A stretch of DNA of 10,935 bases. Origin: a virus. Lineage: Duplodnaviria > Heunggongvirae > Uroviricota > Caudoviricetes. The stretch lies in IMG/VR virus record IMGVR_UViG_2534681940_000021, one strand, 5' to 3'. Shown in pieces: positions 9,001 to 10,935 of the stretch (position 1 is the first letter of the stretch; each line of letters opens with the position of its first letter). A program made the position numbers.

Positions 9001-10935
9001 AGGGAGGTGGTAAAAGTTGCCTGTCCGGAGTGTGGAGGGAAGGGAGAGGTATCCACTGCCTGTAAAGATTGTCGTGGGCGCGGTGTTGCCATTCATCGTG
9101 AAGAGTCGGGAAAAACAGGGTGTGCCGGTTTTCAGAAACTGTCAGCGTTGTGGTGGGCGTGGCTATGAAAGATTACCTTCAACGGAGGCATTTAATGCCA
9201 TATGTAATGTAACCGATGCCATATCTCTTGATACATGGAAAAAACAGTTAAACGTTTTTACGATACGCTGGTGGTGCAGTTTGATATTGAAGAAGCATGG
9301 GCAGAACAACAACTGAAAAAGGTGACCAGATAGCTTTGTTGATTTTTCCCGAATCTGTGGTAAATTTGCCCTAACGATGGGCGTTTTATGCCTGACGTTA
9401 GAAGATTTTTTACACCCGTCGCCAGGCGGGTTTTTTTATGACTGAAATCACGCCAGTACAGTAAACGCGCTGGTGGTTGTGAATACCGGTCTTTCTGCTT
9501 GCTGGCTTTTTCGACAAGAGTTATTGGTGTGTCACGTTAACCGGAAATTGGAAAGTTTGAGAAACGCGATCTGGCACAGGTGGTGATTAACGCCGCATAC
9601 CTGGTGGCCTGTGCAGATGGTGAATGTGAGGCTTCCTAGAAAGCGAAGATCGAACAGGTACTGCGTAATCAGCCTGCGCTGTCCGCGTTTACGTCAGAAA
9701 TTAATGCGATTAGCGCAACCATTATCGGTCAGCTGGATACGAACTTTAAAACTGGTCGTCGTGCGGCGTTACGTGAGATCGAGGATGTGAAACACGATAC
9801 GCGTGAAGCGGAAGATGTGCTGGATGTGGCGGTGGCCATTGCGGAGGCAGACGGCGAAATTGAGCCGGAAGAGCGCAAGGTGCTGGAAGAGATTGCCGGT
9901 GTTCTGGGTCTTCGTCTGGAGAATTACCTGTGACGGTAAAACTGCGCCTGACTGTGGCTGCACTCCTGCTGTTTCTGGTGGTGATGGTGGATTTCACCAG
10001 CAGAATCATGTCGGTGCTGGCGGATGGGGTGCTGGTCTGCGGCATTGTGGTATTGCTGTGGCCGGTGATAAAAAGAAACAGCCTGCATATGCTTGATTTT
10101 TTTGTTGCTGTTTATTAAAAACACTTCTGCATGGTCGAATCCCCCCTGTGCGGTGGGGCAATCAGCAAGAAGGAATATGGGGTAATCGCGGATTCAGGTG
10201 CTGGTACTGAATTCACCGGGAGGCACCCGGCACCATGCTTCGCCACAAAAGTGTTATTTCTGTTTTTCTCAAACTATCATCGTTATCCCTTTATTTCCGG
10301 CTGCGCATGGCGCGGCCTTTTTTTTACGTACCAGCCACTGGCAGATGGTCATCCTGTGATTTGATTCCGGTTCCGGCTTTTTAACTCTGTTCCTGTACAC
10401 GGGAGAAATTCGATGTCGATTAAACATTATGATGTTGTCAGGGCGGCGTCGCCGTCAGATCTTGCGGAAAAGCTGACACACAAACTGAAAGAGGGCTGGC
10501 AGCCATACGGCGGACCGGTTGCCATTACGCCGTACACACTGATGCAGGCGGTGGCTATTGAAGGAGAGCCACAGGTCGGCCCTTCATCTGAGCCGGATTG
10601 GTACTACGTCATCGTACTGGCCGGGCAGTCCAATGCCATGGCTTACGGTGAAGGGCTTCCGCTGCCGGATTCATACGATGCTCCGGATCCGCGCATTAAA
10701 CAGCTGGCGCGCCGGCAGGTACAGTGACGCCGGGCGGGGCTGCCTGCAGATATAACGATATTATTCCGGCTGACCACTGTCTGCATGATGTGCAGGATAT
10801 GAGTACGCTGAATCATCCGAGGGCTGACCTGAGCAAAGGGCAGTACGGCTGTGTCGGCCAGGGTTTACATATTGCCAAAAAACTGCTCCCGTATATCCCG
10901 AATAACGCGGGGATCCTGCTGGTACCATGCTGTCG

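Follow-up and report, generated by a model that had tools for sequence, protein, structure and literature searches.

The stretch of DNA analyzed here, referred to as the window, comprises 10,935 nucleotides (nt) of the IMG/VR virus record IMGVR_UViG_2534681940_000021, assigned to the Caudoviricetes. It forms part of a lambdoid Escherichia coli prophage, with its top matches in the chromosomes of O157:H7 and other Shiga toxin-producing E. coli (STEC). On the plus strand the window carries a Q antiterminator gene (8512–9333), followed by a short block (9339–9437) in which we recognize, in order, the −35 hexamer of a putative late promoter PR′, a spacer that may hold the Q-binding element (QBE), a −10 hexamer, a putative sigma70-dependent pause element and an intrinsic terminator, tR′. 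With the Q stop codon ending at 9333 and the −35 hexamer beginning at 9339, this cassette starts 5 bp past the end of the Q gene.

The Q gene belongs to the lambda-Q family (PF03589) and encodes, in its intact form, a protein of 273 residues with the long architecture of QuuQ and phi80 Q. The family profile is recognized both on the window's own truncated Q open reading frame (ORF), with an E value of 6e-25, and on an intact homologue, with an E value of 5e-52. Over its whole length the window-type Q is 32% identical to lambda Q, from which it is further distinguished by an inserted zinc-ribbon segment of ~66 residues. It shares 41% identity and the same long architecture with phi80 Q, and 62% identity with HK225 Q. 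Because of the PF03589 membership and these identities, we conclude that the lambda-like promoter and putative pause block sits behind a true lambda-family Q gene.

The putative PR′ consists of the −35 TTGATT (9339–9344), the 16-bp spacer TTTCCCGAATCTGTGG (9345–9360), which has TG at −15/−14 in the manner of an extended −10 element, and the −10 TAAATT (9361–9366), identical to that of lambda PR′. A 6-nt gap, TGCCCT (9367–9372), leads to the predicted transcription start, the A at 9373, which is also the first base of the putative pause hexamer AACGAT (9373–9378). Together with the GGG that follows (9379–9381), this hexamer makes up AACGATGGG (9373–9381), which is identical to lambda +1 to +9. 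Alignment of the window (GGTAAATTTGCCCTAACGATGGGCGTT) with lambda (GGTAAATTTGACTCAACGATGGGTTAA) shows no difference in the −10, in the 6-nt spacing or in AACGATGGG. The likeness to lambda PR′/qut proposed in the initial annotation, which cited the −10, the gap and AACGAT, is thereby confirmed element by element and position by position, and it holds 5 bp past the stop codon of a PF03589 gene. The 21-bp pattern TAAATT-N6-AACGATGGG has one occurrence in the window, against 0.02 expected in shuffled sequences with up to two mismatches allowed. A promoter-proximal pause is predicted at +16 to +18 (9388–9390), where T17 and G18, together with G8, would fit the elemental pause consensus G−10 Y−1 G+1; this placement draws on the sequence and on published findings for lambda PR′. 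A terminator-like match at 9367–9383 (TGCCCTAACGATGGGCG followed by TTTT) overlaps the start site, and neither SfV nor Qin keeps its 5′ arm; it was therefore treated as a chance match.

The block closes with the intrinsic terminator tR′ (9414–9437), ACCCGTC-GCCA-GGCGGGT, in which a 7-bp stem (9414–9420 paired with 9425–9431) runs into seven T residues (9431–9437). It was identified by reading the sequence, by a consensus terminator scan and by folding. The distance from 9373 to 9437 is 65 nt and the predicted RNA 3′ end lies near 9436–9438, in agreement with the short, 6S-like leader of about 65 nt put forward at the outset. Among 52 distinct leaders, drawn from the window and SfV types, 93.5% of the cells in the terminator helix are paired, and four of its six pairs are changed on both sides, for example from CCCGC/GCGGG to CTCGC/GCGAG. 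For the whole 14-pair structure, which includes a stem at the 5′ end of the leader, 96% of the cells are paired, vs ~40% when the partner strand is slid. In a few loci this position is taken by an unrelated hairpin, ACCTCGC-TTCG-GCGGGGT. Because pairs change on both sides and unrelated hairpins occupy the same place, the predicted terminator is conserved in position and function, beyond its sequence alone.

In E. coli K-12 the same layout follows ydfT (quuQ) of the Qin prophage, where it reads TTGCAT-17-TAAAAT-TTTTTC-AACGATGGGC...AACCCGCTGATGAGCGGGTTTTGTGC. The Term-seq table of Adams et al. (2021) contains an 'orphan' 3′ end at 1,642,356 on the minus strand of E. coli K-12, with three listings in the three-condition table (PMC7815308). 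This position of MG1655 (~6357 in our locus L086) is the C closing ...GGGTTTTGTGC, that is, the tR′ of ydfT/quuQ, and RNA 3′ ends are thus formed in vivo at the K-12 homologue of the window's terminator. The Qin RNA would be 67 nt long if it starts at the first A of AACGAT. The RefSeq record of K-12 has no RNA, promoter or terminator annotated at this 3′ end, and our literature search found no paper on the quuQ regulatory region.

Given these features, 9339–9437 is very probably the cassette that regulates the late genes of a lambdoid prophage, with a Q that is a QuuQ/phi80-like long form of the lambda-Q family. Cassettes of this kind generically comprise a Q gene, PR′, a sigma-dependent pause element, a terminator and the late genes (PMC9388147). 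In the window, host sigma70 RNA polymerase would start at ~9373 from TTGATT-16-TAAATT. Region 2 of sigma would then re-bind the −10-like AACGAT (+1 to +6) on the non-template strand, and the polymerase would pause at ~+16/+17. Without Q, escape from the pause would be followed by termination at 9414–9437, yielding a ~65-nt leader RNA as the counterpart of lambda 6S RNA. Q bound to the −35/−10 spacer would instead load onto the paused complex and allow read-through of tR′ and later terminators into the late genes for lysis and morphogenesis. A monomer of lambda Q occupies the QBE and engages the paused complex, and the 5′ end of the RNA threads the Q torus at an RNA length of 12–16 nt (PMC9388147). 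Loading of the window's Q would accordingly be done long before the hairpin starts at +42, and a leader of 65 nt should therefore be mechanistically sufficient. The switch as a kind is very well known, and the cassette of the window, with its QuuQ/phi80-like Q subtype, is an uncharacterized member of it.

A search of genome contigs with a single Q protein returned two loci only; for the comparison of subtypes, 80 viral contigs were gathered for each of three Q subtypes, namely the window type, the lambda type and the SfV/Qin type. Behind all three, a −10 is followed after 6 nt by AACGATGGG. In 32 distinct window-type loci, the mean column identity is 98.5% from −35 to −7, with TTGATT near-invariant, and 98.7% from +1 to +33; it is 83% from −6 to −1, 73% in the terminator loop and 77% downstream of the terminator. 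The motif block is better conserved than the 3′ end of Q, and TAAATT serves as the −10 in 75 of 81 window-type loci. The spacer follows the Q subtype: window-type loci, HK225 and mEp237 share TTTTCCCGAATCTGTG, SfV/Qin-type loci have TTTTTCAAAAAATATGG, and lambda has TATTGAATAAAATTGGG, the form common to lambda and P22 being T(A/T)TTGAATAAA(A/G)TTGGG. This is the look expected of a QBE matched to its own Q, and we infer that the spacer holds such an element. A Q-binding site is annotated at the equivalent position in the GenBank record of phi80 (NC_021190).

The pause hexamer tolerates limited variation. Within the window type it occurs as AATGAT, AACTAT, AAAGAT, AATTAT and AACAAT, with the changes confined to positions 3 and 4, while distant phages have AACGCT, AACACT, AACAGT, AAGGAT or AATGAT. 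A2 and T6 are kept in all of these variants; two loci, L160 and L223, have an altered hexamer. In work of the Roberts laboratory, sigma70 region 2 is reported to require these two bases of a −10-like element. Joints between modules are also found in this region. At one locus (L226, ~2020) the sequence passes from an SfV-type promoter into the 194-nt leader of lambda exactly after AACGATGGG, and contigs with a lambda-identical Q carry HK225-type or P22-type short leaders. Further joints at the pause element lie in L113/L118/L109/L126 (~1902), L249 and L257. Because the L226 junction lies exactly after AACGATGGG, the pause element appears to be a recombination boundary between a Q/promoter module and a leader/late module.

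The initial annotation had treated the short distance to the terminator as a departure from the family and had deduced from it a compact Q-loading region. Its point of reference is sound: on the lambda sequence, the T-run of tR′ does end ~194 nt from the first A of AACGAT. The comparison with other phages gives a different picture of what is usual. P22, with a Q that shares 97% identity with that of lambda, has AACGATGGATAAATGCACTCGTTAAATAAAGCCCTGAGTTTAACCGCTCGGGGCTTTTTGCG and a leader of ~57 nt. In phi80, pR′ is annotated together with a terminator whose end lies ~75 nt past the start, and in SfV and HK225 terminators are annotated at the same place. The terminator likewise lies 55–85 nt from the hexamer in mEp237, Klebsiella ST16-OXA48phi5.1 and RCIP0098, Yersinia YeP2, Salmonella SEN34 and SE1Spa, Proteus Brookers, Erwinia 49 and Serratia BZS1; in Edwardsiella Edno5 it lies ~130 nt away. 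Besides P22, the architecture thus recurs in at least 10 further genera. Among 80 viral contigs chosen as the closest matches to lambda Q (99–100% identity), the lambda 194-nt leader is present in 37 and a short leader in 34 (30 of the P22 type and 4 of the HK225 type), with other leaders in 9. Short terminated PR′ RNAs of phages 21, phi80, 82 and P22 were described in the 1970s–1990s, as recounted in the paper on the phage RNA StxS (PMC7547250). Leaders of 55–85 nt are predicted in P22, phi80, SfV, HK225 and Qin and in roughly twelve more PF03589 phages. This length is the common design of PF03589-type Q cassettes and the 194-nt 6S RNA of lambda is atypical, so that the distance in the window marks no departure from the family. 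Nor was the compact Q-loading region supported by the comparison: the region from −35 through ~+17 is the same size as in lambda, with equal spacer/−10/pause geometry, and the shortening is confined to the part of the leader past the pause.

Compared with the window, lambda PR′-qut-tR′ has a Q of the same family, the same TAAATT, 6-nt gap and AACGATGGG at +1 to +9, and an intrinsic terminator before the late genes. It differs in its leader (194 nt vs ~65 nt, with no similarity beyond ~+10), in its spacer (17 bp vs 16 bp, of other sequence and presumably with a different QBE), in its −35 (TTGACT vs TTGATT) and in its Q, which is without the extra zinc-ribbon insertion of ~66 residues. The 65-nt RNA would thus be a functional counterpart of lambda 6S RNA (44587–44780, ~194 nt), not a homologue of its RNA body. 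The phi80 pR′/gp17 (Q) system (NC_021190) resembles the window in its long-form Q (269 residues, 41% identity, with the same zinc-ribbon region), its leader of ~75 nt, a spacer motif of the CGGAA/CCGAA type and a hexamer of the form AACNNT followed by GGG, whereas it departs from the window in the hexamer itself (AACGCT), in the −10 (TAGATT) and in the sequences of leader and terminator. The gene 23/late promoter of P22 shares TAAATT-N6-AACGATGG, a leader of ~57 nt and a 5′ AACGA/UCGUU stem; in contrast, its Q has the short form known from lambda, with 97% identity to lambda Q, its spacer is of the lambda type, and its leader body and terminator are unrelated.

K-12 Qin ydfT (quuQ) and SfV have a leader RNA homologous to that of the window (AACGATGGGC-TTTGTATG...CGTT...terminator), with the terminator at the same position; in Qin this terminator has the published Term-seq 3′ end, and in SfV it is annotated in GenBank. 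Their Q is nevertheless of a 250-residue subtype with 43% identity, their spacer is TTTTTCAAAAAATATGG and their −10 is TAAGAT or TAAAAT. StxS of the Shiga toxin (Stx) phages is comparable by description. In lysogens, constitutive transcription from PR′ that stops at tR′ yields this short RNA, much as it would yield the predicted leader, but StxS arises as a 258-nt primary transcript that is processed by RNase E to 74 nt (PMC7547250).

Several observations weigh against reading 9339–9437 as a working late-gene switch. A generic promoter scan did not flag the site, because its score, with weak hexamers (4/6 and 4/6) and a 16-bp spacer, lies below the scan cut-off of 9/12. A search of published Cappable-seq supplements gave no mapped transcription start for the K-12 homologue. 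Pausing and Q binding are, for the Q subtype of the window, deduced from likeness to other phages. The window, which ends at 10935, contains no late genes; these are seen only in related prophages. Finally, the window's Q gene is interrupted by two insertions or deletions (indels), through which self-activation of the switch may be lost.

The interrupted Q leads to the alternative that the cassette is a defunct relic, intact in sequence but no longer functional as a switch, which would give a short terminated RNA only, or nothing. We consider this possible, though on balance unlikely. Relative to the intact allele WP_000762902.1 of O157 strain PV15-279, the window has gained a G near 9108 and lost an A near 9239; apart from these two changes, 8950–9450 is identical to PV15-279, and both indels are also evident against loci L264 and L001. 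Between them 131 nt are out of frame, and the first frame ends at a stop codon at 9166–9168. With its Q frame-shifted, this copy may therefore depend on a compatible Q provided in trans and otherwise yield only the short RNA. Decay is also compatible with the state of the neighboring TerB-family gene, itself a pseudogene with an internal stop, and with the presence of racR and hokD, hallmarks of cryptic prophages. The indels could mark a real pseudogene or be errors of sequencing. They may be sequencing errors, because both fall in homopolymer runs, compensate each other by restoring the frame and occur in none of 5,426 complete E. coli genomes. Moreover, prophages in which Q is intact have exactly the same promoter, pause element and terminator. 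The Q/PR′ cassette is present in 2,483 of the 5,426 complete genomes, in up to four copies each, so Q could act in trans.

The leader itself has a predicted fold that extends beyond the terminator. The minimum-free-energy structure (−21.3 kcal/mol, z = −2.8) combines the terminator with a 5′-terminal stem-loop (9373–9399), in which nt 1–4 pair with nt 24–27 and nt 7–10 with nt 18–21. In the 52 distinct leaders, 98.6% of the cells of the 5′ stem are paired, with GC/GU changes only. In almost all leaders (L002, L003, L086, L247–L266), AACG at nt 1–4 pairs with CGUU at ~+20 to +27, and in Erwinia 49 and SE1Spa, which start with AACA, UGUU stands in place of CGUU. Four Watson–Crick pairs from nt 1, closing by nt 30, are present in 10 of 12 divergent leader types; the chance probability is 2–18% per sequence, and the naive combined p of ~4e-9 ignores shared ancestry. 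YeP2 is without a strict Watson–Crick stem, and RNAfold predicts for it a 5′ stem of 8 bp that includes G·U pairs, formed by AAGGAUGG and UCGUUCUU. These patterns suggest a conserved 5′-terminal stem-loop that includes the transcribed pause element. Single-base variants of the hexamer in the window type are mostly uncompensated, which counts against strict selection on the stem. As the most economical reading, we infer that the 5′ hairpin might shield the leader and the late mRNA from 5′-end-dependent decay.

A stronger proposal would be that the short PR′ leaders share a selected stem-loop from +1 and that the ~65-nt RNA of the lysogen is a stable functional molecule, either a trans-acting small RNA (sRNA) of the prophage or a cap-like 5′ stabilizer of late mRNA. 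We regard this as improbable, and judge no differently the narrower alternative that the leader is a functional trans-acting sRNA like StxS, more than a by-product of antitermination. The conservation of +1 to +33 at the level of the promoter (98.7%) is in its favor, as pausing in lambda needs only ~+1 to +17, and so are the predicted sRNA-like fold, with its 5′ stem-loop, U-rich single strand and terminator (z = −2.8), the stable 3′ end in K-12 and the precedent of StxS (PMC7547250). Leader bodies are, on the other hand, swapped freely between Q types and strongly divergent across phages, which argues against one conserved seed. An Rfam scan of 9250–9650, repeated at a permissive threshold, found no family at its gathering score; the best sub-threshold matches are driven by the terminator (suhB/mmgR, 20.5 bits where 41 are required; STnc370, 24.6 where 54 are required). 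No target or Hfq-binding data were found for the leader. The Hfq-bound EcOnc/AgvB sRNAs of O157 Sakai, considered as a counterpart of the leader, are unrelated, because the Q of prophage Sp10 is a different one and AgvB1 is encoded farther downstream, on the other strand.

It is highly improbable that the hairpin at 9414–9437 is a plain terminator of the early-right or Q transcript and that the promoter and pause motifs upstream of it are coincidental. Its location ~80 nt past the Q stop codon would be a plausible spot for a gene terminator, and the generic scan called no promoter. Coincidence is, however, difficult to reconcile with a 21-bp match to lambda PR′ at a chance expectation of 0.02, with a block that is conserved behind three Q subtypes and in phages of many genera and better conserved than the 3′ end of Q itself, or with the phi80 record, which annotates the same elements as pR′. 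Least credible of all is a leader-peptide attenuator, in which the ATG within AACGATGGG (9377) would open a 22-codon ORF running through the terminator to 9445: although this frame is open in the window, SfV and Qin leaders, its ATG is an unavoidable part of the pause element, its 5′ untranslated region would be only 4 nt long and without a Shine–Dalgarno sequence, and it ends after two codons in lambda and HK225 (ATG GGT TAA) and after six in P22, so that the ORF at 9377–9445, not conserved in these phages, is probably non-coding.

The surroundings of the late-gene cassette are those of a lambdoid prophage. A related O157 locus (L001) has the order racR, replication genes, hokD, DUF968, rusA, Q and a TerB-family pseudogene, with holin, lysozyme and terminase genes later on the same strand, at least 3.7 kb downstream (holin at 3.7 kb). 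Directly 3′ of tR′, the window contains a TerB-family (tellurite-resistance-like) gene at 9570–9933 with an in-frame TAG at ~9638–9640; in O157 the homologous gene carries a pseudogene annotation and has an internal stop. Further downstream there is an Rfam match to the STnc100 sRNA (10100–10274, 81.8 bits), followed by a strong intrinsic terminator (10299–10317) with an 8-bp GC-rich stem and eight T residues, which would be a second terminator on the path of PR′ transcripts. Five loci with the same Q, PR′ and leader (L012, L027, L040, L070 and L077, ~2430–2470) switch after tR′ to a module starting ...GGCCCTTTAGCTCA, where the window has the TerB module. By sequence likeness only, the GGCCCTTTAGCTCA module resembles the start of the ileZ-type transfer RNA (tRNA) gene behind Q in the Sakai prophage Sp10. 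Upstream of Q, on the plus strand, Rfam matches to isrK (4310–4383, 52.4 bits against a gathering score of 50) and to C4 antisense RNA (4409–4492, 70.5 bits against 45) adjoin each other; IsrK of Salmonella Gifsy-1 is a short RNA from an antitermination-controlled phage promoter. A sok antitoxin RNA at 5196–5370 (Rfam, 117 bits) marks a toxin–antitoxin locus of the hok/sok type (hokD-like).

Overall, our results as they stand change little: a textbook switch, located in a prophage module that is very common in E. coli, is correctly annotated. They can be used for annotating PR′ and tR′ in prophages, including those with cargo genes or tRNAs right after tR′. The natural variation, with changes at hexamer positions 3 and 4, spacers that follow the Q subtype and joints at AACGATGGG, provides a ready mutational map for studies of Q specificity. 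If a function for the 5′ stem-loop or the short RNA proved true, it would add a widespread class of prophage RNAs.

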